A stretch of DNA of 63,975 nt, filler included, from Jimgerdemannia flammicorona (taxonomy: Eukaryota): assembly GCA_003990765.1 (NCBI GenBank). It is 3 parts of 3 records of this genome, joined end to end, with 100 filler letters (N's around TTAATTAATTAA, not from the genome) between each part and the next. Parts side by side here need not be neighbours in the genome. Positions count along the whole stretch, not along the records: positions 1 to 21,260 come from RBNJ01001493.1; 2 more parts are not named here. One strand, given 5' to 3'. Position 1 is the stretch's first letter. The number at the start of each line of letters is the position of its first letter. A program made the position numbers and the translations under genes. Under the pieces are notes generated by a model. The model was not told the origin of the DNA. It did not search any database and saw nothing but the letters and a program-made list of their open reading frames with translations. Below are positions 274 through 52,289 of the stretch, one piece after another.

Positions 274-1083
274 TCATGGGAGCTTCATCATCATCATCAT
301 CACTGAAGGAGATGAGATCCGCGAACTCTTCCTGCAGGTCGTGCGTTTCGTGTACTTCGTCACGCGGTTCGCATGCTTCGGGTATGTCGCGCGGGATGAC
401 GTCATCGCCGATGACGTCATCACGTTCGGCGGGGAAATCGGGGGAGCTCTCCAGTCTATGAGGTTCTCTTCCACAAAGTAAGGAACAAATGTGGGGTCCT
501 GGGGAGGTCTGACCTGGATGCTTGGGCCTTGGAATACTGAGATCAACCCTTGCAGGAACTGGTCTGGGTTGTCCTGAAGGATAGGGTGCCAGAAGTCTTC
601 TACTTCTTCGCTGTTGAGGGTGATAGTGGACCAGGCTTCTGTAGCCACCCTGGCTTCTAGTGCATTGATTCAGCGGGATGACAGATCTCTGAAGTCTGAG
701 ACTCTAACATACTCCAAGTTGGGGATTGACCATGGTGCATGCCTGAAGATCTGATGGATCTTCTTTGCCGTCCTTGCCTCACGTAGGTCTATGGGGGTGG
801 CATCTTGTAGCTCTTGAGGGCTGGCCTGTGGGAACTCCCGGCAGAGGAGGTTTCCTATTTCATACTCCTGCCACATTTGGAGGCATTTGGTGGCAATGGT
901 GATCCTTGTTTCCATTTCACGGCAGTAGAGAATAAAGTGATAGGGGTCTGCAGTACCCAGGTTGATGCTAGGAGTTCTTCTTGAGTGGGTCCTCATGGCT
1001 CTTCTGATGTCTTGGAACATCCTTTCCTCGACCGAGATACCTTGATGATTCCTTGACCTTGAGGTTTGGTGGGCAGCAGGCAT
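274..1083 (-). pseudogene. LTR-embedded accessory ORF (~269 aa), one premature TGA
   Basis: Track ORFs 670-1083 and 274-648 are in frame, separated by a TGA at 670-672 (likely CGA>TGA). Homologous to 24895-25702. Confidence 0.75.
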
Positions 1084-2721
1084 TTTGTTTGTGGTAAGTC
1101 TTTGAGCTATTTTGGGATTGGTAGTTCTTGTTGGTTGCTGCTACTGTGGTTCCTTGATCCTTCTTTTATATTCTTCAGGATGCTTGTGCTGTGGTCACAA
1201 TGACTCACAGTTGGTCATCGTTGCTCATCTCATATGCCATATAATCTTCTTGTACTCTGATCTGGTGGCTTGTAAAGAAAGGCTGTCTCCTGTGCTGATG
1301 TCATCATTCTAGGGTCACCGTTACAATACTCATTATATATATATTGAGCTTACTATATATATATACTGACTATAATGTAAGTAATTAATTCTTATTGATA
1401 ATATATTGATAAAAGCTTGATCAAATATATATTATTTATCAATATAAGCTTGTTATATATATATTGAACTTACTGATACTACTTATTATATACTAACCAT
1501 AATATAAATAATTCAATAATATATATTGAGCTAGATACATATATATTGCTTATTAACCTATGATAAATCAATACAATATATATATATTGAGTCTCTTAAT
1601 GGATCTCAAGCTTTTTATATCATTATCTTATATTATGAATTATTACTTATGACTAAATTATATAACTATAATTAGAAATTAGTATATTTCAACCTTTTAA
1701 GCTATAGTTATATAGTATTTATATAGATTTTTACTAAATTCTATGGATTTCTCTATAATATAAACTTATGAAGATATTATAATATTTCTATCAGTAAATA
1801 GTATAATTACTATCTCTTTAACTATAGATAAGATTATCTTTTAAAATCATTAGCAGATAAATTAAGGTTTGAAAAAAATAATTCTTTGAAATATTATTTT
1901 TCTATTAAAATATATCTCAATTTGTTTAAAAAAAAAAAAAAGAAATATAATTATACTCTCTTTGTGCTTTATTTTTTATTTATATGAAATTGATATATCT
2001 TGATCTTTTAAGCTATAGTTATATAATATTTATATATATGTTTTGCTGAATTCTATAGATTTCTTTATATAATAAACTTATAAAGATATTATAATATAAA
2101 TATATAACTATATTTCATATATATTTTTTTCTTTTTATTAATGAATAGTATAATTGCTATATAACTATCATTAATTTTCACTAAAATTTCTTATCTTTTA
2201 TAAAAAATATAAATTATATCAAACTATTAATATAGATATTATCTCAGGAACTTGAGAATATGCTCAATGTATTTATTTTCATTAATATAGATTTTTAGTT
2301 GTAAAAATGATAATAGAAGTCAATATACCTCAGTTGTATACCTTGGTAGAAATAATCTTATATAACTCTTGTTGAGGTATACTTAATCTGCTTAAATGTG
2401 GCTTTTTCTTAATACCTCAAGGCTGACAAAACCTGCTCATTTTTATTGAGGGTTTTGCATTTTTTCCATATGGAAGTGACTATTTTTCCTTATTGTGCCT
2501 GACTCAATTGGCTAGCTGCAGTTGGCCGGTTCATCACATTGGGCCCACACAAATTTTTGACTCGGGACGGCATATATACCTCACTGCGAGTTAATCCCAA
2601 ATTATCATGCTGCAGGGAACGCAAGTCAGATGATCAGGGTACGCCCTTTTTTTCCTCAAACAACAGTCATACTTGGCACCCCACCTGGTCTATGACTCGG
2701 GACCTGAGGCGAAATAAGTCC

Positions 2722-2745
2722 CTCTCTCTCTCTCTCTCTCTCTCT
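2722..2745. repeat. (CT)n microsatellite just upstream of the start codon
   Basis: About 12 CT units ending 2 nt before ATG 2748. A (TA)n tract also lies in intron 2 (~3503-3528). Confidence 0.9.
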
Positions 2746-2747
2746 AC

Positions 2748-5267
2748 ATGGAAAAACCAATGTTCACTGGCGATCTCCCCGTCCACAAGCGCCTGAGCCG
2801 CTATGCCGTCCACGAGGTTGGCACCGACCTGTCGCATCTCTCCCCTAACGAACGGAAGGCCATTCCTCTTTTGATCAAGGTCGGCAAGCTGCTTGACGCG
2901 CTATATATACGTCAGATGTGGTCCGGCAATGAGAAGCTCCTGGAGCGGCTCAAAGATCACAATGACAAGCAGCTCCTGACACTTTTCGACATGTATAAGG
3001 GGCCTTGGGTATGTAGAATGGCTTATAGCGCTCGTGTCATCATTGGGAAAGAGTACTTTACAAACTGCGTTGCTCTCCCGAACTCACTTCTCTCCTCGCC
3101 ACTCCCAGGCCCGCGAGGACTCCAGCACTCCCTTTATCGCCGATGTCCCACCGCGTCCCGAGGGCGCTAACTTCTACCCTGAGGATATGACGAAGGACGA
3201 GTTCGAGGCATGGGTGACTGGGCTCAACGAGCACGACCAGAAGCACGCCAAAGGCTTCTACTCGGTGATTCGGCGCAACAACAAGGGCGAGTTGTACCAC
3301 GTTCCCTACTCGAACGAATACGGCGACATCCTCTTACAGGTTGCCAATCTTTTCAAGCATGCCTCCAGGCTCGTGGAGGACCCGTCGCTCAGCCACTTTT
3401 TGTACATGCGCGCGCTGGCATTTGAGAACAACAAGTACCTCGATTCCGAAGTCGCATGGCTCAATATCAGTAAGGAGTCTAAATTCGAGATCACCGCGTG
3501 CGTATATATATATATATATATATATATATTTTTCCGCATCCGACAAAAATTCCCTCAATTCATTGTTTTTTGCCCTTCCCATCCGTAAACTAGAGGGCCC
3601 TATGAGGTATACACGGACAGATTGCACGGTTATAAGTCGGCGTTTGAGTTCTACTTGCACATGCGTGACTTCCCCTCCTCCAAGCTCCTGGAGAAGTTCT
3701 CGTCCAGCCTGCAGTATGTCGAGGACCACCTGCCCATTCCAGACGAGTACAAAAATCGCAAGCTCGTCGCCCCACCCATCGTTGTCGTCAACCAGTTATT
3801 TGCCAGTGGCGATGGTGCGTGTTTTTTCCTATGACAGATTCGTAGAGGTCGGGTGGGAATGTTTCGATGGGGGATGTGATAATGCGCAGGAATGCGGAAG
3901 TTAGATGGATCTCTTACTGACGTCATCATATATTAAATTACTTTGTTTTGCATCCAGTTGCCGTGCCCATGACCGCTGGTAAGGATCTTATATGTTCGTT
4001 TATGCTACGGTAATGACTGGCCGGCAGCTTTAGTGCCTGCCGTCACCATATTCGTCATGTGGACGTTTCTGTTGACCTAACCCTCTTCTCTTTCCTTCCT
4101 GTCGAACCTCACTCAGCCTACAACCTTCCGAATGACGAAGTACGTAATATATTCACGGTCACTTTGCAAAGTTTATGGCCTCGCTCGTTCACACGGTCTT
4201 TTGTGATTCCCGACCGTCTTTCCTAAACCCGTGATTCGCCCTGATTCGCATAGGATGCCATCAAGATCGCTGGCTCTAAGCTCGTCCTCATCAAGAATAT
4301 ACAGGAGGGCAAGTTTGCGCGCGTGCTCACCCCGATCGCCCAGCTAACGATCGCAGAGAACCAGCTAAAATTCGTCACGTGGGTGTTGGAGGGCCTTTTG
4401 AGGGCCTTTTGTGTTACTTGCCATTGTGAATGTTATGGTGACGTCGGTTGATGCTCATAAAATCCATCTTTGCTCCTCCAGGAGCGACGCCTTCACTACA
4501 CACATCCTTCTACACGAGGTCACCCACTCAAACGGCCCGCATCACATTGTAAACTGCCCTGAGGATACCGTCCGCTCGCGATTGCAGGAATTTCATTCAC
4601 AGATTGAGGAGGCAAAGGCTGGTGCGTAGGCTCTTTTTGATGCTCGATAGTTTTTTTGATTGTGGATAGCGAGGGTAATTCGCCTACGCAGTTATTAATA
4701 AAGACGGGTGTATTAACTTTTACTAGATATCGCCGGTCTGTTCGCTGCCGCGCTGTTAATCAAGTCCGGCGTCATCGAGAACGTCAAGCCCGAGGAGCTC
4801 TGGGTCACATTCCTGGCGTCCGCGTTCAGGACGTTCGTATGCCTGCTTGCCATTAATCCCACTACCTCCTTTTCATCACACAACTAACATCCCCATCTCC
4901 CCTCCCCAGCCTCCGCTTCGGCATCACCGGAGCCCATGGCGCCGGCCAAGCGGCGCAGGTCAACTACCTCCTCGACGCCGGTGGCTTCGTGCACGACGCG
5001 TCGACAGGTCGCTATTCGGTTGACTTCACGAGGATTGAACAGGCCGTCTCGGACCTGACCCGTGACATCATGATCTTGCAGGGCGATGGTGACAAGGAGC
5101 TCGTCCGGGCCTTCGTCACGCGGTATGCAAATAATCGTCCAGAGACCTGTCAGACGCTCGAGCGCATTGAGGGTGCGGGAGTGCCAGTCGATATTAGGCC
5201 TATTTACACAGTCGAGAAATTGTTCCCGCACGAACCAGAGGTCGAGGCCACCGAGGGCGGCCAGTAG
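2748..5267 (+). CDS. Peptidase family M49 (dipeptidyl peptidase III-like, HEXXH type; resembles the peptidase domain of plant Nudix hydrolase 3), 547 aa, 9 exons
   Basis: Exons 2748-3008, 3109-3497, 3594-3814, 3958-3978, 4117-4139, 4254-4378, 4482-4621, 4727-4832, 4910-5267. All introns are GT-AG and the exons total 1644 nt in frame. Motifs GANFYPEDMTK, GPYEVYTD, AYNLPNDE, HEVTH, EEAKAD, LRFG..AHG. Confidence 0.92.
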
Positions 5268-6600
5268 GGGGGAAAGATGGATTTGGTAGCTGTGGGTGAT
5301 GATGCCAAGCGGAATGGATGGTTCATAGCGACTTCTTTAGGTTTTTTTCCCACTCCAAGCCACATCCAAATAAAACTATGATAAATCTTGCTCTGGAAAT
5401 CCTCGGTCTTTTTGTTCATGTCTTATGAAATGTAATTATAAGGCAACTATCTCTCAAGTATTGTTATTTTGATTTCCCTAACCAAACCAAGAATAAGATT
5501 ATCACAGCTATTCTCACAGCCATTGAATGTCAATAGACCTCCACTGAACTGCTCTCAGTCAATAAATGAATTTCTGAAAGTCCGGACTTGAATTCTGAAA
5601 GAATTCAATACTTTCAAGCCTTTCTCTATCAATAAGAACTGAAGAAATATTATGAAATAGGATGAATCATCTACCAACAGATCACTTTTAGTAAGACCAA
5701 ACAGATATCTTGTCTTTTTATCAATAACTATGCTTATGATATTATAAAGAGATTATATGTTCTTTTTTGTACATAACTCTAAGTCCTCAACCACTTTTAT
5801 AAAATAATCTCTGATAATATTATCAACCTGACTGATGAATATTAGAGCAATATCACCTTTCAAGTAGTCTAATATATAATCTTTTAGTTTAATAAATATC
5901 TGGAGTTTAATATAAAATCAAATGAGTAGGTTTAGACAAAAGAGAGGAAAATGTAATAGTTTATTATAAAGCAAAAATTTTTAATAGAATTATCAATAGA
6001 AATTATAACAGAATTTCTAAAGAAAATTTCAATATAGTAGTTATATACTATATAAAGTATAACTATATATAGATATATCTAATATATTATATTTAAACAA
6101 TAGTCTCAATTTATATAAATACTCTCTATACTGAATATATTGTAACCTCAGCTATATTTTTCCCTCTTAAGAATAAAGAAGTATTTTTATCAAGAACTCA
6201 TAGACTTAACTTATTAATAATTCTGAATCTGATCAACTTAGGATATAAGTACAGTACTTCTATTTAGATAAGATCCTAAAAGTAATACTAAATTATATCT
6301 CAGCTATATATAGATATTTAGAACTTAGCACTTTCTTATAAAACTCAGAATCTAGAACTAATAGTTTATTCAGATTATCTGTAATGTATTAATTCTATCA
6401 GTATAGAGTTTATTATAATATTTAATATCTTAGCTTCTATTTTACAGTTTAAGATATTTCAATATATAGACTGAATTTTAGATAACTCAGATTTCAAGAT
6501 ATAATTTATTATTATATTTATTTAGTAGTTTTTAATAAAACAGAAGTTAGTTGATATTTTAGAATTTATTAAAAAATCTAGAGTAATTTAGATATTATTA

Positions 6601-13638: not shown

Positions 13639-15699
13639 TATAAGAGGGTTACTTTTTAGGGTAGCCATTACATAGTTCTAGAAGGGTTTTCTGGAGGTTC
13701 CGGATATTCTGGAAGACTGTTTTCTTATGGTCAAGATCAATTTCGTATGGAGTACATCCTCTATGATTATTGATTTTAAGATTGGGTTGACATCTCAACC
13801 AAAGTCCTTTTTTTGGACTAGTTCTGGATGTTCAGGATTTTCTGTATTTCAGGAAGTTCAAGAAACTAAGACCAGCTTAGTTGAATCAGCGTATTGCTGC
13901 AGACAATACCCAATTAGGAAATTTCATGATGGGGTTAGGAGTGGGACCTAATGGGGAGTGGCTTTACTTAAGAGTGGTTTGTGGGTTATTAAATAGGTTT
14001 ATTCGCTATTCATGATATGCTATACTAAGAGTAGTTGTGTGAAGGGATATTGTGGGGAAGTGTTTAGGAATATTCTTATATGTTCGAGTCAGAGATTCTG
14101 AGGTCTGGGGGAGGGGGTATTTATACTAGTGAGGGGCTATCTGGACTATACTAGATATGGATGTAGTACTAAGTACTTTGTTGAGTCGGAATGCAGTCAT
14201 GTAGTACAAGTATGATCTGACATGTCAAGAGATCGTCTGACTGCTGAGTCAGTTCACAGTCATGTCATATAAGGCTAATCTAACTATACTATGACTGCTA
14301 GGCTATTTATGAGTTTAGGTGCTGTCTGGGTAGTTCTCGATGACATCACTATCAATTGCATTATCTCTAATAAAGTAGTCATCTAGGAAGAGTGGTTCGC
14401 AGATTACTTCTCCTTGTTCACTGAGGTAATAATACATTAGAACTTCATCACCATCCCACAGGATAGCATTGTCTGTCTCATATGCTGGATATGGTATTGG
14501 TGGGCGAAGGAGGGGTGCATCATCTTCACTTTCATCAGATTTGCTATCTGCATACCTTCTGTAGGTAACAGCACTATAAGTCATGGGGTTGTAGTAAGCT
14601 GGTGGCTGTGGTTCATGTCGCTCATACTCAGGTGGTGGAGTGGTTGGTTCAATCTCGAGAGTTGTCTGAAGGTACAGGTTATGTTCTCTGGTCTCTTCAT
14701 TGTAGTTGAAGTAATCGGGGGTGAATGCTGGTTGGTATTCATGCTAGTGGTCATTGTCCCAATAAGTCTCATATGCTGTTATGAATTGTTGTAAGTTCAT
14801 CAGCAAGGTTGGTGGTGTGATCAGGGTTGGCAGAGATCCTTGGCTAGAGGTCATATCAGTATCAGAGGGATCATTATCTTCTGCTTCATCTTCATCGAAG
14901 TGGATTATATCGTTGATGTCCTTCATAGTATATCCAACTTGGGGCATTTGCAGGATATGATCATTGGGATGTGTGAAGGTTCTGTCTGTGGTTTCGACAT
15001 ACTCGAGGTACTTGTGGTTGAGTTCTTGTATCATATCATCGATTTGGCCATAGGACAGGGTAGCAACCATTTCAGCTGTAGTAACTCAGAGGCAGGGAAT
15101 AACAGTGCTATACTCATAGAAGAGTTCTCAATGTTTGCAGGCAATGAGCTTCTGATGTTGAGACATCTGGATAATATCTGTATTGTGGTAGTGTTTGATT
15201 ATGTCTTCCAGGAGGCAGCTGATCTGGTAGTAGCTTGAGATTTGTCTGATTCAGTGGACCTCGCTAAGCATGTTCAGAGCATTCCATCAGGCTTCCATGA
15301 AGTAGAGGGGTGCTAGGCTATGGATATTCATAAGGGCAGAGGGGGTGTGGCTCAGTTGACAATGGCATTCCAAATGTCGGTGCAGATATGGGTGTAGATC
15401 TCAGTGGTCATGTTTGTGTGTCTGGAAGTTGTGGTTGTTATTTGTTTTGGTTCTCTGATTTGATGCATCTCAGTGCTCGGTATATATGCATTTGGTCCTG
15501 ATTGGTAAGATTCTGTTTATGTAAATCTTGTATTCTGTGACTTCATATTGACTCAGCTTTGTGTACTGTGACTTCAGTTTGACTCAGCTTCATGATCAAG
15601 CAGGTGATTTCTAGATTTGTTCAGAGGTCATGTGTGATTTCAGTGGCTTGTTCAGAGGGTGACATGTAATTTCATTGGCTTGGAGGTTGTGCACTTACA
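13639..15699 (-). repeat. LTR family A, copy 1 (2061 bp, 3' LTR)
   Basis: T(A/G)TAAG...CTTACA termini. PPT (actctccccttctt) abuts at 15700. Core TATA ~14117-14125. Four copies in the window. Confidence 0.9.
14315..15411 (-). pseudogene. LTR-A embedded accessory ORF (consensus 365 aa)
   Basis: Track fragments MTT.IYTHI, MVATLSYGQ and MTYSAVTY join into one frame when copies 1-3 are compared. Stops are CGA>TGA or TGG>TAG type. One 1-bp deletion in this copy. Confidence 0.8.
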
Positions 15700-17420
15700 A
15701 CTCTCCCCTTCTTAGCTTTCGATGTCCTCATCAGGGCCTTCTAATTTTGTTCAGTGATACAGGGAGAATAGGCTTGCTTTCAGTTTCACCCTTTTTCCAG
15801 AGAGTCAGTATTCTTATCTTGTTTTGCTGAGTTCTTGGTTTGGTTTGCAATAATTATAATGTTTGGGAGAATAATATATAGTATGTATGGATAGGTGCAG
15901 AATATTTGGTTCTAGTTGTTCAAGGAATCATATTCCTGAACTAGGTCAGTAGCATTCTGGAGATTGGTCTTGGGTTCTCAGATTGCATCATGGATTAGGT
16001 AACCTTTCCATTTGACAAGGTACTCAGGATGGTTCTTGTTGCCATGTTTGTTGAGGATTTGTTCAACTTCATATTCTTCTTGATCATTAATAATGATAGG
16101 TGCAGGTGTTTTGGTGGTCCAGTTTGGAAATAGCTCATCATCATTCTCATTGTATCACTTGAGACGTTGGACATTAAAGACTGGGTGAATCTTAATAGTG
16201 TCTGGTAGCGTCAGTTTGTAGGAGGTAGGAGAGACTTGTGTGATGACTTCAAATGGTCCAAAGAACTTACTGTTCAGCTTTGTAGATGGTCTGTGCTTGA
16301 GGTTGTCAACTCAGTATCCTCTGATGTCCAGTAAAACTTTTTCTCCAATATCAAAGGTTTCTTCTTAGCAGTGTTGGTTAATATACTGTGACTGTTTTTC
16401 TTGAGCTCATGATAAATTCTCGATTGCAATCTGGCTTAGATTACGCATTCGGAGTAGGAATTCTTCAACAGCTTCAACTGTAGAGAGTTCTTCAGTGGTA
16501 TGGATAAGTGTTAAAGGGGTGTTTGGGTTTTGTCCAGTGTTGGCGAAGAATGGGGTCATTCCAAGAGAGGCTTGCTTGCTGTTGTTGTATGCAAACTCAA
16601 CTGCAGTGAGGTGTTCATACCAGTTATCTTGTCTGTAGGAAAAATAGTTCCTTAGCATTTGTTCCAGAGTTCGGTTCATTCTTTCAGTTTAGTCATCAGT
16701 TTCTGGGTGAAAAGCTGTAGATAGTGCAAATTTTGTTCCAAGGTATATATGGAGGGCTTTCCAAAATGGCTGGTGAATTTCGGGTCTCAGTCACTAATGA
16801 TGATCTTTAGAAGACCATGGTAGTGGAAGATGTTGTCAAACAAGAGTGTGGCTATGTCTGGTGCTGTTGCAGTAGTAGTAGTAGGCACAAAGTGGACTTG
16901 TTTACTGAGATAGTCCACAAAGATGACAATTGCATCTTTTCCATTCTTGGTTCAGGGTAATTGTACAATGAAGTCCATAGAGATTTGTTCCCAATTAGCA
17001 GATGGTACTGGGATAGGGTGAAGTAAGCCAGGATTTGCTAGTGTTGAGGACTTATTTCATTGGCAGACATCACAGAAAGTGATGTAGGTTTTGAGCTAAT
17101 CTGCCATATGGGGCCAATAGAAGTTTCGGGAGATAACTTCATAACATTTATCAAATCCTAAATGTCCAGCTGTAGGGGTATCATAACATTCAAATAGGAT
17201 AGTCCTTCGGAGGTCTCAGTTGTTTGGGACATATAGTCTGTCTTTGTAGTAGATAGTATTGTTCTTCAGCTGGTATTGATGATACCGTGTATGCTTGTCA
17301 GCATCATCACTATTCAGGATTTCTTGCAGTGCTTGAGCTTCCTTATCATCGGCACATGCTGTGATAATTTGTTCCATGATAGAGTTTGTGACCAAGGTGA
17401 GAGTTTGGATAACCTCTTCA
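15700..17420 (-). mobile_element. Family A integrase + chromodomain fragment
   Basis: [28 protein letters not shown] and EYEVEQIL..YLVKWKGY motifs. Confidence 0.9.
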
Positions 17421-19481
17421 TATAAGAGGGTTACTTTTTAGGGTAGCCATTATGTAGTTCTAGAAGGGTTTTCTGGAGGTTTCGGATATTCTGAAAGACC
17501 GTTTTCATATGGTCAAGATCAATTTCATATGGAGTACATTCTCTATGCTTATTAATTTCAAGATCGGGTTGATGTTTCAACCAAAGTCCTTTTTTTGCAC
17601 TAGTTCTGGATGTTCAGGATTTTCCATATTTCAGGAAGTTCAAGAAACTAAGACCAGCTTAGTTGAATCAGTGTATTGCTGCAGACAATACCCAATTAGG
17701 AAATTTCATGATGGGGTTAGGAGTGGGACCTAATGGAGAGTGGCTTTACTTAAGAGTGATTTGTAAGTTATTAAATAGGTTTATTTACTATTCATGATAT
17801 ACTATACTAGGAGTAGTTGTGTAAGGGGATATTGTGGGGAAGTATTCAGGAATATTCTTGTGTGATTGAGTCTGAGATTCTGAGGTCTGGGGGAGGGGGT
17901 ATTTATACTAGTGAGGGGCTATCTGGACTATGCTAAATATGGATGTAGCACTAAGTGCTTTGTTGAGTCGGAATGCAGTCATGTAGTACAAGTATGATCT
18001 GATATGTCAAGAGATCATGTGACTACTGAGTCAGTTCACAGTCATGTCATACAAGGCTAATCTAACTATACTATGACTACTAGGCTATTTATGGGTTTAG
18101 ATACTGTCTGAGTAGTCCTTGATGACATCACTATCAATTGCATCATCTCTGATAAAGTAGTTATCTAGGAAGAGTGGTTCGCAGATTACTTCTCCTTGTT
18201 CACTGAGGTAATAATATATTGGAACTTCATCACCATCCTACAGGATAGTATCATCTGTCTCATATGCTGGATATGGTGTTAGTGGGTAAAGGAGGGATAC
18301 ATCATCTTCACTTTCATCAGATTCGCTGTCTGCATACCTTCTATAGGTTACAGCACTATGAGTCATGGGGTTGTAGTAAGCTGGTGGCTGTGGTTCATAT
18401 CACTCATACTCAGGTGGTAGAGTGGTTGGTTCAATCTCAAGGGTTGTCTGAAGGTACAGGTTATGTTTTCCAGTCTCTTCATTGTATTGAAGTAATTGGG
18501 GGTGAATGCTGGTTGATATTCATGCCAGTGGTCATTGTCCCAATAAGTCTCATATGCTGTTATGAATTGTTGTAAGTTCATTGGCAAGGTTGGCAGTATG
18601 ATCAGGGTTCACAGAGATCCTTGGCTAGAGGTCATATTGGCATCAGAGGGATCATTATCTTCTGCTTCATCTTCATCGAAGTGGATTATATTGTAGATGT
18701 CCTTCATGGCATATCCAACTTGGGGCATTTGCAGGATATGATCATTGGGGTGTGGGAAGGTTCTGTCTGTGGTTTCAACATACTCGAGGTACTTGTGGTT
18801 GAGTTCTTGTATCATGTTGTCGATTTGGCCATAGGACAGGGTAGCAACCATTTCGGCTGTGGTAACTTGGAGGTGGGGAATAACAGTGCTATACTCATAG
18901 AAGAGTTCTCAATGTTTGCAGGCAATAAGCTTCTGATTTTGAGACATCTGGGTAATGTCTGTATCATGGTGGTGTTTGATTATGTCTTTCAGGAGGTGGC
19001 TGATCTGGTTGTAGCTTGAGATTTGTCTAATTCAGTGGACCTTGCTAAGTATGTTCAGAGCATTCCATTGGGCTTCCACAAAGTAGAGGGGTGCTAGGCT
19101 ATGGATATTCATGAGGGGCAGAGGGGGTGTGGCTTGGTTGACAATGGCATTCCAAATGTCAGCACGGATATGGGTGTAGATCTTGGTGGTCATGTTTGTG
19201 TGTCTAGAAGTTGTAGTTATTGTTTGTTTTGGTTCTCTGATTTGACGCATCCCAGTGCTCGGTATATATGCATTTGGTCCTGATTGGTAAGATTCTGTTT
19301 GTATAAATCTTGTGTTCTGTGACTTCCTATTGACTCAGCTTTGTGTGCTGTAACTTCAGTTTGACTCAGCTTCATGATTGAGCAGGTGATTTCCAGATTT
19401 GTTCAGAGCTTGCGTGTGATTTCAGTGGCTTGTTCAGAGGGTGACTTGTAATTTTGGTGGCTTGGAGTTTGTGCATTTACA
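17421..19481 (-). repeat. LTR family A, copy 2 (2061 bp), with embedded ORF at 18097-19193
   Basis: Colinear with copy 1, with the same termini and PPT. Confidence 0.9.
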
Positions 19482-21240
19482 ACTCTCTCCTTCTTAGCTT
19501 TTGATATTCTCATCAGGGCCTTCTAATTTGTTCAGTGATACAGAGAGAATAGGCTTGCTTTCAGTTTTGCCCTTTTTCCAGAGGGTCAGTATTCTTGTCT
19601 TGTTTTACTGAGTTCTTGGTTTGATTTGCAATAATTATAATATTCAGAAGGATAATATATAGTATGTATGGATAGGTGTGGAATATTTGATTCTAGTTGT
19701 TTAAGGAATTATATTCCTGAACTAGGTTGGTAGCATTCTGGAGATTGGTCTTGGGTTCCCAGGTTGCATTGTGGATCAGGTAACCTTTCCATTTGACAAG
19801 GTACTCAGGATGGTTCTTGTTGCCATGTTTGTTGAGTATTTGTTCAACTTCATATTCTCCTTAGTCATTAATAATGACAGGTGAAGGTGGTTTGGTGGTC
19901 CAGTTTGGAAATAGCTCATCATCATTCTCATTGTATCGCTTGAGACGTTGGACATTAAAGACTGGGTGAATCTTAATGATATCTGGTAGTGTCAGTTTGT
20001 AGGAGGTAGAAGAGACTTGTGCGATGACTTCAAATGGTCTAATGAACTTGCTGTTCAGCTTTATAGATGGTCTGTGCTTGAGGTTGTCAACTCAGTATCC
20101 TCTGATGTCCAGTAGAACTTTTTCTCCAATATCAAAGGTTTCTTCTCAGTAGTATTGGTTAACATACTGTGACTGTTGCTCTTGAGCTCGTGATAAATTC
20201 TCGATTGCAATCTGGCTTAGATTGTGCATTCGGAGTAGGAATTCTTCAACAGCTTCAACTGTGGAGGGTTCTTCAGTAGTACAGATAAGTGTTAAAGGGG
20301 TGTTTGGGTTTTATCCAGTGTTGGCGAAGAATGGGGTCATTCCAAGAGAGGCTTGCTTGCTGTTGTTATAAGCAAACTCAACTGCAGTGAGGTGTTCATG
20401 CCAGTCATCTTGTCTGTAGGAAACATAGTTCCTTAGCATTTGTTCCAGAGTTCAGTTCATTCTTTCAGTTTGGCCATCAGTTTCCAGGTGAAAGGCTGTG
20501 GATAGTACAAGTTTTGTTCCATGGTGTATATGGAGGACTTTCCAAAAATGGCTGGTGAATTTCACATCTCAGTCACTAATGATGATCTTGGGAAGACCAT
20601 GGTAGTGGAAGATATTGTCAAACAAGAGTGTGGCTATGTCTGGTGCTGTTGCAGTAGTGGTAGTAGGCACAAAGTGGGCTTGTTTGCTGAGATAGTCCAC
20701 AAAGATGACAATTGCATCTTTCCTGTTCTTGGTTTGGAGTAATTGTACAATGAAGTCCATAGAGATTTGTTCCCAATTAGCAGATGGTACTGGGATAGGG
20801 TGAAGTAAGCTGGGTTTTGCTAGTGTTGAGGACTTGTTTCGTTGGCAGGCATCACAGGAAGTGATATAGGTTTTGAGCTGATCTGCCATGTAGGGCCAAT
20901 AGAAGTTTCGGGAGATAACTTCATAACATTTATCAAATCCTAAATGTCCAGCTGTAGGAGCATCATGACATTCAAATAGGATAGTCCTTTGGCCATCTTG
21001 GTTGTTTGGGACATACAGTCTGTCTTGTAGTAGATAGCATTTTCCTTCAGTTGGTTTTGATGATACTATGTATGCTTGTCAGCATCATCACTATTCAGGA
21101 TTTCTTGCAGTGCTTGAGCTTCCTTATCATTGGCACATGCTATGATAATTTGTTCCATGATGGAGTTTGTAACCAAGGTGAGAGTTTGGATAATCTCTTC
21201 GATTGGTGGTTTGGAGATTGCATTGGCAATAATATTTTCC
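19482..21240 (-). mobile_element. Family A integrase + chromodomain fragment, copy 2
   Basis: Colinear with 15700-17420. CDACQRNK zinc-binding motif. Ends at a poly-T tract. Confidence 0.9.
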
Positions 21241-21260
21241 TTTTTTTTTTTTTTTTTTTT

Positions 21261-21360
21261 NNNNNNNNNNNNNNNNNNNNNNNNNNNNNNNNNNNNNNNN
21301 NNNNTTAATTAATTAANNNNNNNNNNNNNNNNNNNNNNNNNNNNNNNNNNNNNNNNNNNN
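21261..21360. other. Artificial contig linker
   Basis: N44-TTAATTAATTAA-N44, giving stop codons in all six frames. Confidence 0.95.
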
Positions 21361-21852: not shown

Positions 21853-21913
<61 letters not shown>

Positions 21914-24178
21914 GTCACTTGGACTCTGCTATTTATTACCAGTCTATTAATAAGTTTACAGTATATCCTCCAAATACCCAATCCCCATAAGGGGGCCACT
22001 CCCCACATCCTCACGAACAAAGACTACTCTCTCACCCATGACTCCCACCCTCCCTCTACTCTGCCTACAGATTTTCTCCACCAAATGACACCTTCAATCA
22101 TCCTACAACCCCCAACCAAGCCACCAGCCTGTCAAGGTGTCTTCTATAAGGCTACACCACTGCAGCAGCCTGACCTCTAAGTCAAGTCTCCTCCTATCCT
22201 CAAAAACAAATAACCAGTGACTGGTCAGCTCTATTCAAATGGCCAAAGCCCAGCCTAATGTAAGCCATTCCTTCCCCACCCCCCTACCAATCTATCCCTC
22301 AAATCCTCCCACTGCCTCTGCATGCCAGCTCCCCTACAAACTACCTCCAAATGATCCCTGATGGTCTGCCAAAAGGTACTAAGTACCTCACACTCTCCTA
22401 GCCAATGTTCAGGCATCTGTATATATCTCCCTTATTGCTCTACATTATAACACTCTCTATAGTCAAAGCAACCTCTCTTGATAACGTGACCTAAGTGGAA
22501 GTTGAGCATGATATTTTGCCTCAGTATACACCACCAGGCCACCCAGTACTTTGGTAGCATCCACCTCCTCACCTCAGCACTCCAGGCCCAAATGCTATAC
22601 TAGTCCCACTCCTTGCCAATTCCTACTCCTTGCCAACTGCTAGGCCACAGATCCTGGCCTGGTTCCTATTAACATTCAATCCAATCACTAATATCAAACT
22701 CAATTAGGGAAATGCTGCCCAACAACACTCAGTCCCATCTCCACATTGCTGGGTCCCAAGCCACCTTCTCTTTATTTCCCTGCTATCTAATTCCAATGCA
22801 GTGCACCCCCTACCAGAAGCCTTTGTATCACAATTGTTCAGTATTCTGAAGGCCAATAAATGCTAGGAGATTACCAGTCAAACCTCTAGGTGAGGATCTC
22901 ATCTCTCAGACTTTCTGCAATAGGGGGACCCAACCTCCCCCTCTCAACTCTACTGCTCTCTTCAGCCACCATGCTCTCAAGCAGTGCAGCCTCTTAGAAA
23001 AGTCAACCAGCCCAAGTTCACTCCTTGCCACCAGTAAGGATAAGACTTTCCAGCTAATCTGACTCTGTCTTTCAGCCCAGATCCACCCCTTGGCCAGCTT
23101 CATCAATCACTTCACCACCCAAGCTGAGAAGTCCAGATGATAAGCCAGATACTACAACTTTGGCAGCCAATAGATATTCAGAATAGAAACATGCCCTGTC
23201 AGAGATAATTGGCGACCCCCCCAACTCTACAGGGCATCCTTCCAGATTCCAACCTACTGTTCTCACCAAAGTCTGGATAAAACTGACCCATATATCAACA
23301 GATAAATACCCAAGTACTGTACCAGCAGGGATGATGGTTCCAATAATCTCCCCTCCCACCAGACTATTGCCTAACACCATTGTTTTACACTTATGCCAAT
23401 TAAGCTTGACCCCTGAGTTCTCCTCATACTACTCCACTGTTTCCTTGAGCTTTTCAACATCTGCAATTGATCCTAGGCCAACCACCATGTCATCTGCAAA
23501 GGCTTCTACTTTCCACCCAATGCCAATGATAGAGAGCTCCACTATCTTCCACCTGATTCTGTCTACGAAGGGCTCCAGAGAAAGTGCATATAAAATGGGG
23601 GACAGTGGGTCCCCCTGGGGCACCCCCCTACCCAGAGGAAACACTACCCCTCTGTGTCCATTACATATAAGCACAGCCCTACTTCCTTTTAGTAATCTGA
23701 CCATGGCTGACCTGAACTTGTGTGGGACCCCAATCCTATCTAATACTTTTGCCAGCCAGACCCACTGCACCCAGTCATAAGCCTTCTCCTGGTCCAGAAA
23801 AACCAGTCACCCATCCAGTCCACTGGCTCATGCCCCTTCAATAACTCCATGAATCTAGGCAGTACCATCCCTAATGAGCCAGCCTCCCACAAAGCCCCTC
23901 TGCTCAACACCCAAGACTTGCTGGGCCACCTTTTGTATCCTTGCAATCACCATCTTGGTAACCAACTTTCTATCCATATCCAGCAATATAATCAGCCTCC
24001 AGTTCTTCCAGTCCTCTCACCTTCCTTTGTTCTTGTAAAGCAATATCACCAGCCCCAGATCCTGTTCTCCCACCCATTTCCCTGTCTGAAGAATCCAATT
24101 ACACAGAGCCATCATCTCATCCAGTACTCCTGGAACTCCCACCATCTGCTTCCAGAAGTCCTAGGGCAGACCATCCTC
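21853..24178 (-). mobile_element. 5'-truncated L1/Tx1-like LINE (RT, C-terminal Zn finger, poly(A))
   Basis: RGVPQGDPLSP and AFADD motifs. Poly-T at 21853-21910. Confidence 0.9.
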
Positions 24179-24894
24179 TTACTTAGAGACTTAGTATACA
24201 ATGTATACCAAGAAGCCTTCAGTTTGAGGAAGCACTCACTTAAAAGTAAGTGTAGTGGCAGTGCCTTCTATTTCAAAGGTCTTTCTCTTGTGTCCTATTT
24301 CAAGGGCCTTGTTCTTTATTGTACACAGACTGAATTCACCTTGGAATTCAGATTCAATGGGTTTACTTAAGTCTTTGGGGATTTATATACCAGTCTCAGT
24401 TCTGGCAGAAGTTAGCTAGGCTTCTGGAGTTTAGTCAGAAACACTAGAGTCACTTAGATATCATTACTAAGACTCAGAGGAATGTGTATATGTGAGGGGA
24501 CTTGATTCTTGTATCAAGGACTGAACTAAAACTGCTTTATTTTGGATAGAAACTGGGGGGTATTTATACAAGTTGGTCGGTGATTTCTGACTAAGTATGA
24601 GTGACTAATTTGGTAACTATAATGAGGTTTGTGATCGCGACCTTAGTCAGGTGGTTTTTGGTAAAGAATATCTTTGTGATCCGGACCTCAATTACTAGGC
24701 AATGATTAGCAGCTGTGGCAACAGTTGCTGTAGTGCCAATTGTTGGGGATAAGCTAGATATCGTTTTCTGTGTCGTTTTGCATCATTCGCATCATTTGTC
24801 ATTCATATGTCATGCTTCGTTCATATGATGGATGTCATCACCATTGGGTTATGTGATCGCTCATCATGCCTCATTCTATTACATCCTTTCCTCC

Positions 24895-25702
24895 TTAGAA
24901 ATCAATGTCCTCATTGATTGAGAAATTGAGAACTAGCAGAGAGAAAGGTGGGGAATTCTGCTCAGGGTTGTTGGCATCTTCTTTAGTAGTAGGGGGGGTG
25001 GTGGTTGCTGATGGCTCACTGTCCAGGATGGAGAAGTTAATGAGGTCTGCAAATGGTTCTTGTATTGGGATAGGTGCTGGTGTAGGGGCCATCCAAGTAG
25101 GGTTCTTGGTTCTTGTGCCTGGGAATATCCATTCAGATAGGCAGTCCTTCAAAGAGGTCAGAGAGGACTTGGACCCATTGGTCAGGGTTGTCATTCAGGA
25201 GGGGGCTCCAGTAGGGTTTGCAGTCAGTGGACTTGAGGGTGATCTAGAAGTTGGCTTCTTGGGCTACCTTGATTTCTAGTTCATCAACCTCAAAGAAGGA
25301 GAGGATCTGGAAGTCCTTCAGTTGGACATAGTTGAGGTTGGGGATTGCAAAGAGTACATGATGCATGATTCGATGGACCTTCTTGGTAAGTATTTGCTCA
25401 CTCCCATCCAGGTGGGTCCAATCAGAGACTTGGTCCATGGGTAGGTCCTTTGCCCATTGGAGGAGTTAATGGCCAATCTCATATTCATGCCAGATCTCTA
25501 GGTGGCTGGTGGCAAGGTAGGCTCTTTCAATGACTTCATGGTCATTGAGGACATAATATCCTAGGTCCTGGCTGGAGAGGTCAAGGGCCTCTGAGTGGTA
25601 GTTCCTTCCTTGGATAGCCACCTGGATGTGTTCAAAGAGGTGCTCAACCTGGCTTGGGAGGGGCCAGCTATAGTGGGCAGTTTGGCAGCAAGTGGTAGGC
25701 AT
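24895..25702 (-). pseudogene. Family B accessory ORF (~269 aa) between pol and PPT
   Basis: In-frame fragments 25466-25702 and 25244-25438, then one frameshift into the 24895 frame. TATAAATA ~70 bp upstream. Homologous to 274-1083. Confidence 0.75.
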
Positions 25703-27240
25703 TCTTGTCTTGTTCTTTTCTTTATGAGGAGAGGGGGATGTGAGTTGTGGGGTATTCTTGCCTAGGATATTTATACTTATTCACCCATCTGATGTGAGCT
25801 TCCATGGGTCATGCTTTCTGGTAAAAATGCATGACCTGTTGCTGTAAGCAGGGCATGTGCTAGTTACATGAGAAAATCCTGATTTCAAAGATCTCATCAC
25901 CATAGTTATGGTTACACAAGGTTAACAGATATTGGTCCACTTTTTTTTTGTCTAGTTGGCATATTTGCGAGGACTGACCATCCTTTTCTAGGGCAAGGGC
26001 TCCCATTGTCATGGCTGGGGGTTCGAATATCTCAGAAATAGACTTTTCTTATAATCCAAGGCAATTCCTAATAACAATATCTGTCATATAGATAGACTTA
26101 GACTGGTTTCGAAATCATTTGCTTTCCTAAGTTCCATATGAAGCATCCATCATCATCCAGCGGAGATGACACAGATGATGTGAAATGGAGTTGTTCAAAT
26201 GTGTTTTGCTGTACTGTACTAGATTGTTCATTTGTCTGGATATCTTCTTGTTAGTTATCCATAGTGTTCCCTTTTTTCGCAATGTTTGGTATTATATGTT
26301 TCCAGATAAGGATGTGGTATCCTTTTGCTCACTGTGTGCTCCAAATCCTAGAGCTGCAGTTCCTTTCTTTACTAGGGAGTAAGTGTTTCCATATAGTTCT
26401 GGAGGGCTTCGTGTGCATTCTGCAGGGCTTCATCTTTTTCCCAGGTAACATCATGGGTGGGGTAACTCTTCCACTTAATCAGGAAAAACTGCTTGACTGT
26501 TTTGGGATATTTGCAGACCTTGTGGTCAAGTACTTCCTCAATTTCGAATTTCTCATGATCATTGATCCAAATTGGGGGTGGTGATGGAATTGTATGCTTG
26601 GGGAATAGATTCTCATGGTAGTCCACCAATTGGATGATATGGAATACTGGGTGTACTCAGATATTATAGGGAAGTTGCAACTTGTAGTTGACTTTGCTAA
26701 TCTTTTCCATGATCTTGTATGGTCCAATTCTTCTAGCATGGAGTTTCTTAACTGGTTGTTATACCAGGGTGTCTGGGTGGAGGTGGTCTGTTCTAAGCAT
26801 GACCATGTCACCAATATTGTAGGAGGCTTCTCTTTGCTTCAAGTTTGCATACTTGGTCTGGTAGTCTTGTGTTTCTATGAGAGCATCTCTTGTCATTTGG
26901 GTAAGATCAGAAATGGTCTTGGCCAGATCTTGGGCTACTGGGACTACTGATTTCGCAGTAGTACTTGGAGTCCTTGGGTATTGACCATGGTTCAGGAAAA
27001 ATGGAGTCTTCTTTGTTGAGGTTTGCTGACTATTGTTGTAGGCAAACTTGGCATAGGCTAGGTATTTGTCCCAATCATTTTGCTTATAACAGCAGAAAAT
27101 GCTAAGTATCTGTTTGAGAGTCCTATAGTACACTTGGTTTGACCATCAGTCTGAGGGTGGTAGGCAGTAGAGAACTTCAGCTTGATTCTATGGAGAGAGA
27201 AAAATGCCTTCCAGAAGTTACTTGTGAACTTGGCATCTCA

Positions 27241-30200
27241 GGAGGACCTCCTTTTGCTTGAACCATTCAGAGCAAGCTAAGCCACATGGACATCTTTTCA
27301 CAACAAGCAAAACGTTTTCAAGTTTTCCTATTTTCTATTCTGGTGTACAAGGTGTAGCAGGAGTCTAGCTACAGTACACAATAAGTCTCATCTGTTTTTG
27401 TGGAGTTTTTGTCAGATGATGACCCAGGGTTCATCAAGCTCTGAGTATTTAGAGAGAAGGAGGCCTGGTCTGGGTCTCCCTAAGAGTTTTGCAGCAACAG
27501 TTGGAGCTTGTGTAGGGGCAAGAGGAGTAGATGATCAGGAGAGACAGGCTGGTATTGAGAGTTGGCACACAGTGATGGGGGGCAGGAGGGTGGCTACTAG
27601 GCCCATAGGGGTAGAGCTGGGGTGACATAGTGTTGACAGAGGTGGGAGTCAGGTAACTGGCCAGGTGACTGGTCAGGTGACAGGTCAGGTACCTGCTAGG
27701 GGCCAGGGGTCCGGAAGTAGTATGGCTGGGACTGGTATTCCTGGGGCTGGGCCAGTGGCTGGGGTGACTGCTGGAGTGTCAGAGAACTGAAAGAAGGCAA
27801 TGATGGCAGTAGGTTCCAGCGAACTGGTAGTGCATCCCTTCTTCCATAAGTCAGTGTCAACATGGGCCATTTCAGCGAATTTTCTGGGACTGGGGATGTC
27901 TGCTAGAAAGGTCTTGTGGCTAGTGGAAGAGGAGATTGCAGGGGCAGAGTCACTGAATTTCATCCCATCAGCTGAGGTGGTTGAGATAGGATTTGTCAAG
28001 AAGGAGGAGATGGTGAAGGCCTTGGAGAAAGGGCTGGTCATCAAGAACATCAAGGTTGGCATGTCGAGGTGCCTGAGATGAGACCCACAGGCAGTGCGAC
28101 TAGTGATTGAAGGGCTGCTGACATTGGGGAGACAGGAGACCAAAGGAATGGAGGCAGAGGTGCTGGGGGCATTTGGCAAGATGGTTGATTTTGGATTTAT
28201 GTTCTGGGAGGGGACTAAGCTGAGGAATGGCAATAATGAGATAATGGTGAGGCTGGAAGGCAAGGAGGCCACAGAGCAAGGGAGGGATTGGCCAGAAGTA
28301 ATTTGTATTGAAGGGCAGGAGTACAAAGTGTGGAGAAGGAAGAGTTCTGAACAGGAGGAGGAGAAATTGCTAGTCACTCTAGAGGAGAGAGAGGCTGCGA
28401 AGGAACTGTGAAAGCAGAGATGGGAGGAGTTTGCCAAAGACTGGATCTGGATCCCAACAGATGGGAGAAGAAAGAGGTGGTAAAGGACAAACTAAGAGTG
28501 CCTGCAGACAGTCCTCCAGAGCTCAGAAAGGGAGGAGAAGGAAAGAGCAGAGGTGGTCAAAAATCAGATGGAAGAGGTAGAGATAGCTGAGGTGTCCTTT
28601 TCGCAACTAGGGGGTGTGGAGAACTCCACTCATGTACTAGTAAAGGGGAAGTGGGCTGATAAGGAGAAGGCAACTGCTGGGGACTTTGAGGAGGTTATCA
28701 AGGTGGTACCGGAGACCCAGTTGGAGGATGTCCACATGGTGGGAGCTGCAAATGTTCATTGGGAATGCCCAGAAGCAGGCAAAGTAGTTCGGCTGGAGAA
28801 AGGCACTGAGGAGGATGACCTGGTGGATGTGGCATCCAACGTATTGATGGATAGAGAGATGCTGCAGGAGCTGAGTAGGACCCCAAGACTAGCCACTCCT
28901 AGGCCCATAGTGATGACAGTGGATGACTGATATCAGGCAGTGCTCGAGGAACTTGTGGAGGAGGATATCAAGGAAGTGGATGTATTTAATAAATTGCAGG
29001 AGGCCTGGGAAAAGTTCCTCAATATGGTATTGCAGGGGCCGAAGTTGGTGACAGTGATGGTAGCAGCACTTCTGGATGATGAAGGATATGAGATAGATGA
29101 GGACCATATGGCTGATATCAGGAAGGTAGCATCAGAGTGAGTGGATGTCTTCTGCAGTGGTGGGAATGGAGCCCATATCTGGAGGGCTATCTGCGAGGAA
29201 TAGAAGGTGATAATCTGCAGTAGGGCTGAAAAGGTGGTTGTGACTCCAGCTGAGCTTTAAACATTTATATCCATAATGATAAACAGTCTATGTATATTAT
29301 CACTAAATGTCAATGGTTTGCGTGATGGAGTGAAGCGAAGGCATTTGTTTTGGTGACTGAAGATCAGGAGGTATGATGTAGTATTTCTGCAGGATATTCG
29401 GACCTATGGGGAGCAAGATTATGAGAAGTGGAGCAAGGAATGGTTTGGTAGTACAGGGTGGAATGAGCAGGTGGGTATTTTGGTTGGCTTGGAGAGAGGA
29501 GAGCTGAAGGAGATTGAGATATATAGTGATTGATTGGTCTGGGGGAGATTGAAAGGAGGAGCTGGTGATGGGCTGGTGGTTGGCTCTGTATATCTGCCGG
29601 CAGTTGGCAGAGAGCGAAACCAATGGGTGGAAGGTTGGCTGGATTGGGGAGGCCAAGATGAGATTGGGCTGGACATTCTGAGAGGGGACTTCAACATGGT
29701 GCATGACAGGACACTAGATAGGTCTGATGGTGGAGTTGGAGTGGTGGTTTCTACAGGGCTCTCACGGTGGCTTCAAATTGAGAAGAAAATGGGATTGGTT
29801 GATAGAGTATGACAATGTCAAGGTGAGAAGTCAGGGCTATTCACTAGGTGGCATCTGGTTGGTGAGGATTTGGTTAGTATAAGGATTGACTGGATTCTGG
29901 TAGCAGAATACTGGGGCAATGTTTTGGATTCGACAGAGGTATAGTAGTGTCTCTGGTCAGATCACTGGGGTGTGGAGGTGTGTGGGAGATTCCAGGTAGC
30001 CAGTGGTGGTGGAGGCAGATGGAGACTCAATGTGGCACTACTCAAGAGACAGGTGGAGCAGGACCAGTTTGTTAAAATTGCAAGAAAGGAAGTGGCACAG
30101 TGGAAGAACAGTGGCCAGTCAATAGCACAGTAGTGGGGGAAATTTAAACATTTGACAGGTGCATATTGGTGTGATGTAGGAGAGGTAGCTGGGAGGGAGC

Positions 30201-32990: not shown

Positions 32991-33022
<32 letters not shown>
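27241..33022 (+). mobile_element. Full-length L1/Tx1-like LINE (ORF1; ORF2 APE-RT-Zn finger; poly(A))
   Basis: TSD aactt(g/a)g(c/t)atctca at 27227-27240 and 33021-33034. ORF2 from 29277 with SLNVNGL, GDFN, SDH, SSPGEDG, DQEKAYD, QGDPL. Confidence 0.93.
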
Positions 33023-33024
<2 letters not shown>

Positions 33025-35849: not shown

Positions 35850-36270
35850 TTTTTTGGTAGATCCAAACCCTTTCTTGCCATGGTCTGTCTGGGAGAGTTT
35901 GGGGACTTCTTCAATGGTGAGATCTTGACAGATTTCTTTGATGATTGCTTTGACAATCCTTTGGCCTATTTTGACTTCAAATGATGTGTCTCCAAAATTT
36001 CGTAAGATGACATGGATTTCACCAGTAAATCCTTGGTCAACTACTCCTCCTCCTAGTCTAATGTTGAACTCTTTGGATAGGCTACTTTGCTCAGCAAGGC
36101 AGATGTATGTATCTTTGGGAGCTTGCATTGCAATTCCTGTTCACACTATAGCATTGGTGCTTGGTGGAATAGTGAGGTCTTAGCTACTGTAGAGATCATA
36201 TCCAGCATTAGTTGGGTGAGTCTTAGTGGGGATGGTAGCCTTGTATTATATCTTCTGTACTTTGATGACA
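35850..36270 (-). pseudogene. dUTPase domain (family B), between gag and PR
   Basis: AGYDLYS, SSLS, GGVVDQGFTGEI, HGKKGFGST. Confidence 0.9.
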
Positions 36271-42619: not shown

Positions 42620-42719
42620 NNNNNNNNNNNNNNNNNNNNNNNNNNNNNNNNNNNNNNNNNNNNTTAATTAATTAANNNNNNNNNNNNNNNNNNNNNNNNN
42701 NNNNNNNNNNNNNNNNNNN
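42620..42719. other. Artificial contig linker
   Basis: N44-TTAATTAATTAA-N44. Confidence 0.95.
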
Positions 42720-51953: not shown

Positions 51954-52289
51954 TCAGAGCCTTCTGATTTGTTCTAGTGTTGTTATACCATTTGGGAGGT
52001 CAAAAGTCTGGTAAGGTCTATTTTTCTCAGAAAGTAGCATGCTCATAGTACAGTTGCCTAATGTGTTGGATTCACATATTAAAGGATTGTGTGTTTGATG
52101 CCGTGTGCCGGAAGTGATTCTGATATCGTTTACTGCTAGAGAATTTTCTCTAAGGAATCTTCTTAAATGTCTACACCTCATTTCCCACCAGTGGTACAGG
52201 GAGAATAGATTTGCTTTCAGTTTTGCTATTTTTCTGAAGAGTCAGTATTCTTTTGTCTTGGCTTTGCTAAGTTCTTGATTTTTGTTCAT
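51954..52289 (-). pseudogene. Small ORF (~111 aa) between chromodomain and PPT in family A
   Basis: ATG at 52289 is in frame with track ORF 51954-52181 across a single TGA. 215 bp of it is absent in copies 1 and 2. Confidence 0.5.

Follow-up and report, generated by a model that had tools for sequence, protein, structure and literature searches.

A 63,975-nt stretch of Jimgerdemannia flammicorona DNA (GenBank assembly GCA_003990765.1; hereafter the window), made of three parts joined end to end, carries an orphan gene that our evidence largely identifies as an accessory of fungal chromoviruses and that, notably, in some lineages lies within the long terminal repeat (LTR). Five copies of its open reading frame (ORF) occur in the window, namely ORF D (254-1083), ORF B (24895-25702) and three copies of ORF A, all on the minus strand, as are the element parts located below unless another strand is given. 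An earlier interpretation made from the DNA alone (the sequence-only reading) had proposed an accessory gene family of Gypsy elements spread over three LTR lineages. This proposal stands: the carriers are dUTPase-containing chromoviruses (Ty3/Gypsy), as the domain order demonstrates for B and A (the carrier of D is represented in the window only by its LTR, 1-1325), no known domain was matched, and no host gene turned up among 1.84 billion representative proteins. We consider it likely, from the evidence described below, that the ORF is an element-encoded gene of these chromoviruses, a third besides gag and pol, and that it has a promoter of its own.

ORFs D and B encode one protein family, as originally suggested: BLASTP aligns them without a gap over 167 residues, 60 of which are identical (36%; E=6e-38), and every peptide quoted in the sequence-only reading was located where it had been placed, on the minus strand. 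The ~269 codons given for both are not clean frames. For D, first delimited as 274-1083, the homology holds while the frame is interrupted by an in-frame TGA at 670-672 (codon 138) and by a frameshift near 442-445, at which a tblastn match with the homologue P0002 splits into 1020-442 and 445-257; because the family C-terminus ('...ILNFLL') and the family stop (254-256) are found in another frame, the true span of this decayed copy is 254-1083. ORF B was correctly positioned at 24895-25702 but is likewise decayed, with three in-frame stops and one frameshift, and its final codons lead, through the stop, straight into the polypurine tract (PPT) of its element. Homologues P0002-P0007 are 57-93% identical to D. 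A word-indexed search of 5.8 billion clusters returned six proteins (E 1e-116 to 1e-32), unnamed or annotated 'hypothetical protein', with no Pfam domain and encoded on contigs of 0.8-1.6 kb, and an exhaustive profile search of the 1.84 billion representatives recovered five members only (138-342 aa), none longer or fused. Intact members are P0003 (271 aa, D-type), P0012 (342 aa, B-type) and the ORF of L001 (291 aa, B-type), the single locus confirmed from 61 pattern matches in a metagenome scan. L001 has the layout of B, its ORF ending in ...DIDF with a stop that runs into a purine tract, followed by TGTAAT. A weak tblastn match at 46531-46716 (plus strand, E 0.3-1.0) was rejected as chance, being a low-complexity frame devoid of the family motifs.

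Ratios of nonsynonymous to synonymous divergence (dN/dS, Nei-Gojobori) were 0.34 for D-B, 0.26 for D-L001 and 0.165 for B-L001, values that are rough since dS is saturated (~2) and both D and B are pseudogenes. Differences between B and L001 fall on the first, second and third codon positions in the proportion 56/46/90. Because of these low ratios and the third-position excess, the data support the view, also taken by the sequence-only reading, that purifying selection acted on the protein in the past.

ORF D lies within a partial LTR, LTR-D (1-1325), which starts with TGTAACGG at 1325 (its 5' end), runs off the window start as either a solo or a 5' LTR, and is flanked by AT-rich DNA. Contigs of four public sequencing runs (two soil metagenomes and two from coded organisms, one of these guessed to be RNA; 1655, 401, 190 and 28 aligned records per run) were aligned to positions 1-2000 to examine the LTR border. 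From 1 to ~1340 their summed depth ranges between tens and thousands (positions 336-402 of ORF D have no contig cover and are not counted as evidence), and beyond this it falls to ~0 in all four runs except for one bin (1810-1876), where run X17 reaches 102 and the others at most 3.8. The contigs break at 1325/1326 with at least three different continuations. On the element strand, runs X2 (one contig) and X4 (three contigs with an agreement of 0.7) have as their loose-end consensus unique internal sequence ending in the purine run AGGAGGAAGA, which directly precedes TGTAAC and which we read as the PPT before a 3' LTR; X17 continues into another flank and the window itself into AT-rich DNA. 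The differing continuations, together with this PPT, therefore mark 1325 as a true element end of LTR type. ORF D starts 242 nt inside that end, and its placement inside an LTR is upheld. It probably belongs to U3, the window holding only the portion of LTR-D upstream of R and U5, because the ORF is followed by a TATA-like TGTATAAAT (1-9) resembling the TATA box of the LTR of element B (TGTATAAATACC at 24559-24570, then AATAAA); apart from such short motifs, the part of LTR-D behind the ORF was not alignable with LTR-B at the DNA level. A separate TATA box (TATAAAAG, 1163-1170) stands 80-87 nt upstream of the ORF D start codon, and a 35-nt tandem repeat of 2.9 copies (142-244, strand unassigned) lies just downstream of the ORF, within LTR-D.

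Element B presents the alternative arrangement, in which the ORF lies between the chromodomain and the PPT of the 3' LTR, just where it had been predicted. Its gag-pol region (26375-36800) encodes, in order, CCHC, dUTPase, protease, reverse transcriptase, RNase H, an integrase zinc finger, an insertion, the rest of integrase, SH3 and a chromodomain that ends at ~26375 (Pfam families dUTPase, RVP_2, RVT_1, RT_RNaseH, Integrase_H2C2, SH3_Tf2-1 and Chromo). The PPT (24884-24896) adjoins both the stop of ORF B and the LTR start at 24883, as in L001. The 3' LTR (24176-24883, 708 nt; TATA box 24559-24570, AATAAA 24536-24541) is 91% identical to the 5' LTR (41096-41802), with which it forms a pair; the start of the latter at 41802 matches 24883, and both begin TGTAATAG. 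ORF B has its own TATA box (TATAAATA, 25765-25775) 66-73 nt upstream of the ATG. Farther out, 214 nt upstream of the ORF, a TGTAAC... motif (25905-25916) occurs with no purine tract before it, at about the distance that separates the true LTR start from the ATG in D; it may be what remains of an LTR start resembling that of D. Separately, a foreign insertion of 5.6 kb (~27300-32990), beginning with a long A/T run at ~32980 and having an extreme GC skew (0.46), splits the integrase of element B; a Pfam scan of its minus strand gave no match. An 818-nt direct repeat (38624-39441 versus 41802-42619, 87% identical) brackets the 5' end of element B, its second copy adjoining both the 5' LTR and a run of Ns; the repeats may represent the paired LTRs of another element.

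The A pattern is present in three copies, with ATGs at 15411 (A1, 14318-15411), 19193 (A2, 18100-19193, broken by stops and one frameshift) and 51632 (A3, 50535-51632, one frame of 366 codons with five internal stops, four of them TGA). All three retain, upstream of the ORF, a purine tract AAGAAGG[A/G]GAGAG followed by TGTAA[A/G]TGCAC, and the ATG lies 288 nt behind this conserved PPT and TGTAA. For A2, where the PPT occupies 19483-19495 and TGTAAATG begins at 19481, the motif delimits a putative LTR of ~2.06 kb (17421-19481); the corresponding putative LTRs of A1 and A3 are 13639-15699 and ~49853-51922, and a far end of ...CTCTTACA is common to four copies. On the strength of the PPT and TGTAA motif, ORF A probably lies within this ~2.06-kb LTR; the placement is well motivated and takes the place of the flat assignment made for A in the sequence-only reading. 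The Pfam domains of element A are divided between copies, with integrase (H2C2 and core), SH3_Tf2-1 and chromodomain upstream of ORF A in A2 (19640-21258), and CCHC, dUTPase and protease in A3. The 5' LTR of element A3 (62290-63489) has lost its 5' part; the break falls within the ORF region, where neither TG nor a purine tract is present, and the LTR is followed by a sequence GTAGCAGCAGT that resembles a primer-binding site (PBS). Element A as a whole comprises a tandem unit (13639-17419 and 17421-21200; 3781 nt, 92% identity) and an internally deleted element (~49853-63489). Each tandem unit extends from integrase to the LTR end, with the LTR end of one joined to the integrase of the next; the units (13639-21200) precede an N run at 21261 and may be an assembly artefact. 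In the deleted element, the stretch 59000-62290 jumps from protease to the C-terminal integrase core; because reverse transcriptase, RNase H and the integrase N-terminus are missing, A3 is a non-autonomous copy, and it still retains the extra ORF region.

The membership of A in the family, asserted by the sequence-only reading, depends on which A sequence is compared. With the decayed window copies the profile match fails: tblastn did not link ORF A to the D/B family, hmmsearch with a D/B profile gave A an independent E-value (i-E) of 2.9, and HHalign of D/B against these copies gave P=0.037 with a probability of 1.4%. In the reverse direction, a plain hidden Markov model (HMM) of A only did not recover D or B in the six-frame window, its best score to a family protein being 8.5 bits, and ORF A is about 100 codons longer than D or B. 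These results suit an unrelated ORF that happens to occupy the same place in a related element, an explanation to which we assign a minor share of the probability. Two intact relatives of A, P0016 (247 aa, the C-terminal two-thirds, 62% identical) and P0017 (128 aa, the N-terminus, 81% identical), bear on the matter. HHalign reached P=0.0032 with a mixed profile and P=1e-4 (probability 58%, 117 columns, score 34.8) with P0017, an alignment over nearly its whole length; none of 300 shuffles of P0017 (13.0 +/- 2.5, maximum 22.9) and none of 69 natural decoys, 128-residue ORF segments from elsewhere in the window (12.1 +/- 2.4, maximum 20.5), attained this score, and the reversed sequence scored 12.3. 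The alignment of A with D/B is moreover colinear, the acidic motif RD[DN].I..D[VL]I is similar in both, and the cassette layout and distances are alike. Because of the P0017 result and the shared layout we retain ORF A as a remote family member, which we judge fairly probable.

Decay of a particular kind appears to have erased informative residues in the A copies of the window. In-frame stops of the A and D copies are mostly TGA (four of five in A3, and the one in D), arginines of the intact relatives correspond to TGA or Cys in the window, and the run contigs differ mainly by transitions, of which plus-strand G>A is the commonest. This pattern fits C-to-T decay at CpG sites, as in methylated repeats.

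The extra ORF is always in the sense orientation and downstream of the chromodomain, and is accompanied by a recurring set of signals. A TATA box precedes the ATG by 66-87 nt in D, B and L001 (295-304 in the last), with a TATA-like site at 19257-19270 in A2. D and L001, although of different types with silent sites saturated between them, have in common TATAAAAGAA as well as a 20-nt leader that precedes the ATG and is identical in the two. Because a TATA box occurs in all types, and because the leader and TATAAAAGAA are kept despite the saturated silent sites, the arrangement suggests a gene with its own promoter and 5' leader. D and A further share a cassette of PPT, TGTAA and 242-288 nt to the ATG, with the TATA box in between. 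D, and probably A, run in the order PPT, LTR start, leader, ORF, whereas B and L001 have leader, ORF, PPT, LTR start. The simplest account of this difference would be that the plus-strand priming site has shifted across the gene, in either direction.

A further chromovirus in the window, element E (52947-58970), is nested in element A and does without the extra ORF, its chromodomain ending ~290 nt before the PPT (53354-53366); it has 406-nt LTRs (TGTAA...TTACA) and a PBS-like TGGTAGCAGCAGT. Of the 29 nt preceding its PPT, 27 are identical to the terminal codons of ORF B with their stop. Since E lacks the ORF, the end of ORF B overlaps a conserved pre-PPT element. This overlap is what one would expect if the conserved feature were cis-acting DNA or RNA of the U3 or pre-PPT region and not a protein at all; we give that explanation almost no weight, given that silent sites are saturated over the ORF while the protein is retained, that other sources contain unbroken frames of 271-342 codons, and that run contigs carry 3-nt in-frame indels at 251, 285, 286 and 406. 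In the C-terminal part of integrase, B, A and E share only 34-43% identity; therefore the gene was either lost in E or moved between lineages. The absence of the ORF from lineage E, the tiny size of the family and the death of all five window copies would also suit a passenger, that is, a captured host-gene fragment or a chance ORF carried along by successful elements. We hold this to be improbable: no host gene or longer relative was present among the 1.84 billion representatives, which span all lengths, the ORF was kept in three lineages as diverged as their integrases indicate, its third-position excess and dN/dS of 0.17-0.34 speak for a protein, and its TATA box and leader are conserved.

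The protein is predicted to begin with a helical domain of ~190 aa, to continue through a short hairpin and to end in a disordered tail. An AlphaFold model of the N-terminal domain built from 15 sequences (best predicted local distance difference test score, pLDDT, 71; predicted template modelling score, pTM, 0.63) places helices at residues 21-187 and the hairpin at 203-215. Tails of the D- and B-type proteins comprise 46-125 residues, including 17-28 Asp/Glu, 2-4 Lys/Arg and 8-40 hydrophobic residues, with the recurring motifs DLI[S/N/T]F and, at the terminus, [I/V]LNF. No membrane segment was detected in a plain hydropathy scan of five family proteins (maximum Kyte-Doolittle mean over 19 residues 0.64-1.38), so the protein is not env-like. 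None of nine family proteins passed a curated Pfam cut-off among matches with E up to 1 or 10; the best scores, to NpmA (E 0.026) and RAMP (E 0.053), are both far below it, and the ORF copies in the window matched no Pfam family either. A sequence profile search of PDB found no match (best E 0.44), nor did Foldseek against PDB for either model at E<=0.001, and ESM Atlas held no usable look-alike for P0003 (best 0.83) or P0016. In the VIA wide fold search the best Z of 4.1 is at noise level for helical proteins; five ParB/SopB/VirB/KorB/Spo0J rows (Z 3.0-4.0, model residues ~71-157) are only a lead.

What such a protein might do is a guess, and we offer a role as transcription activator or adaptor tentatively. 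A short message of ~1.2 kb would start from the internal TATA box and be terminated by the poly(A) signal of the following LTR (in B, AATAAA at 24536-24541). In the layout of D and A any LTR, even a solo one, would amount to a self-contained gene, and the border of the LTR would have shifted across the gene during evolution. The helical domain would dock on a protein of either the host or the element, while the acidic-hydrophobic tail would recruit host machinery and so raise element transcription in trans, as do the tails of VP16 or foamy-virus Tas. In its fullest form, a clade-encoded trans-acting regulator consisting of a VP16/Tas-like adaptor with a private promoter and with the whole gene in U3 in two lineages, the proposal is speculative and we think it doubtful.

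We give equal weight to a second possibility, itself no better than tentative, in which the accessory gene has another job, either as an RNA export helper resembling Rev or CERV or as a motif-based adaptor or decoy for trafficking, autophagy or silencing proteins. The acidity found throughout the protein suits protein binding better than nucleic-acid binding, and near residue 30 the D-type proteins contain a stretch rich in Arg; this stretch is, however, weak in the B-type and absent in the A-type. DLISFE and DLIIFE would fit the clathrin-box pattern (L-hydrophobic-x-hydrophobic-acidic) and are candidate motifs of that kind. There is precedent for an RNA export helper in an LTR retrotransposon in Caenorhabditis elegans Cer1 (PMC10309623).

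Several observations weigh against the picture of an accessory gene with its own promoter and an activating product, and should temper it. All five window copies are broken, and the family is so narrow (five representatives) that it may be a short-lived passenger; the saturation of dS leaves dN/dS as a rough guide. The link of A to the family comes from HHalign, plain HMM searches failing in both directions, and the start of LTR-A is placed by motif, the sole 5' LTR copy being truncated. The first AlphaFold model (11 sequences) was poor, with a pLDDT of 54, and four of five second-round models reached only 50-55.5. The whole protein is acidic, with an isoelectric point of 5.3-6.4 for the helical domain, and an acidic core argues against direct DNA or RNA binding, so that an activator would need a partner. 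As for expression, among 20 sequencing runs that match the sequence (each by less than half of the query words, and mostly soil metagenomes) none is recorded as RNA, and the ends of transcripts cannot be read from contigs.

General full-text literature searches, which do not prove absence, found no description of the family. Chromoviruses of fungi that bear a dUTPase have been described, and the legend of Figure 3 of Novikova et al. (2010, PMC2864245) lists an 'add. ORF' of unknown function; this ORF may be the present family, a point that may bear on novelty. The terms 'third ORF' and 'ORF3' do not occur in the passages of PMC3248453 that were searched. Additional ORFs of Ty3/Gypsy elements (the env-like ORFs of plant Athila/Tat, those of bdelloid rotifers, and the fungal 'add. 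ORF'; PMC5408684) are likewise sense ORFs downstream of integrase, and share with ours a position beyond gag-pol, unknown function, restriction to lineages and fast evolution. Unlike them, our family has no likeness in sequence or fold to named families, is not env-like, and lies in the LTR in one lineage and probably in a second. CERV, the accessory protein of the Ty3/Gypsy-type element Cer1 of C. elegans, acts in trans on element RNA in RNA export (PMC10309623); it belongs to a different host, and RNA export would be conjecture for our protein.

Retroviruses provide further parallels of position. The sag gene of mouse mammary tumour virus (MMTV) is also a complete gene of ~300 codons in U3, and thus present in both LTRs. 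MMTV Sag, from a mammalian retrovirus, is a type II membrane glycoprotein, whereas the protein described here has no hydrophobic segment, no detectable similarity to it and a fungus-like host; no likeness to Sag appeared in the PDB sequence search, in Foldseek or in VIA wide (best Z 4.1), although a missing match does not exclude likeness. Foamy-virus Tas/Bel1, which has an internal promoter, and Tax of human T-cell leukaemia virus (HTLV) are encoded at the 3' end of their genomes, where the gene adjoins or overlaps U3, and herpesvirus VP16 has an acidic tail. Our ORF resembles Tas and Tax in this position and in its size of ~300 codons, and its product resembles VP16 and Tas in joining a structured core to a C-terminal acidic-hydrophobic tail; it differs from all three in having no sequence or fold match and an acidic core, and promoter use and activation are here only proposed. 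The nef gene of human and simian immunodeficiency viruses (HIV/SIV) is a 3' accessory ORF that overlaps PPT and U3 and encodes an adaptor acting through short motifs, acidic clusters among them. The analogy with nef is positional only, for there is no similarity and the present proteins, which start MPA, MPT or MTT, have no myristoylation signal.

The window as a whole is repeat-rich eukaryotic DNA of 29-50% GC with strong strand skews and four N runs in two clusters (21261-21360 and 42620-42719). Self-comparison and Pfam scans of read-through frames reveal several nested Ty3/Gypsy chromoviruses, every one on the minus strand. Two related RVT_1 fragments of non-LTR type, one of them within element B, occur at 37231-38124 (plus strand) and 23432-23806 (minus strand), in regions inverted relative to each other (21894-24178 versus 39522-37213, 67% identical). 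An apparent intron-containing host gene at ~2700-5400 (plus strand) displays several open exon-like stretches and an HEVTH (HExxH-type) motif, and Pfam gave no match at E<=0.01 between 2.5 and 6.0 kb. Between LTR-D and this gene lies a long AT-rich low-complexity stretch (1327-2500) with TATA-type microrepeats, nearly uncovered by the run contigs.

Extra genes are what separate 'complex' from simple retroviruses, and they have barely been described in fungal LTR retrotransposons. One orphan gene across three diverged chromovirus lineages offers a testable candidate for a regulator encoded by a fungal retrotransposon, and a natural example of how, when the plus-strand priming site moves, a gene might enter or leave an LTR. 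It also holds a warning for annotation, as solo LTRs can contain an apparent stand-alone gene, labelled 'hypothetical protein' in the sources. If the product is indeed a regulator acting in trans, every LTR, including the thousands of solo LTRs that recombination leaves, would be an autonomous gene supplying the factor, and a 'complex' genome organisation in the style of retroviruses would have arisen in a fungal retrotransposon. Should the protein counter host silencing or drive LTR transcription, it would help to explain why these elements have been successful in fungal genomes rich in repeats.

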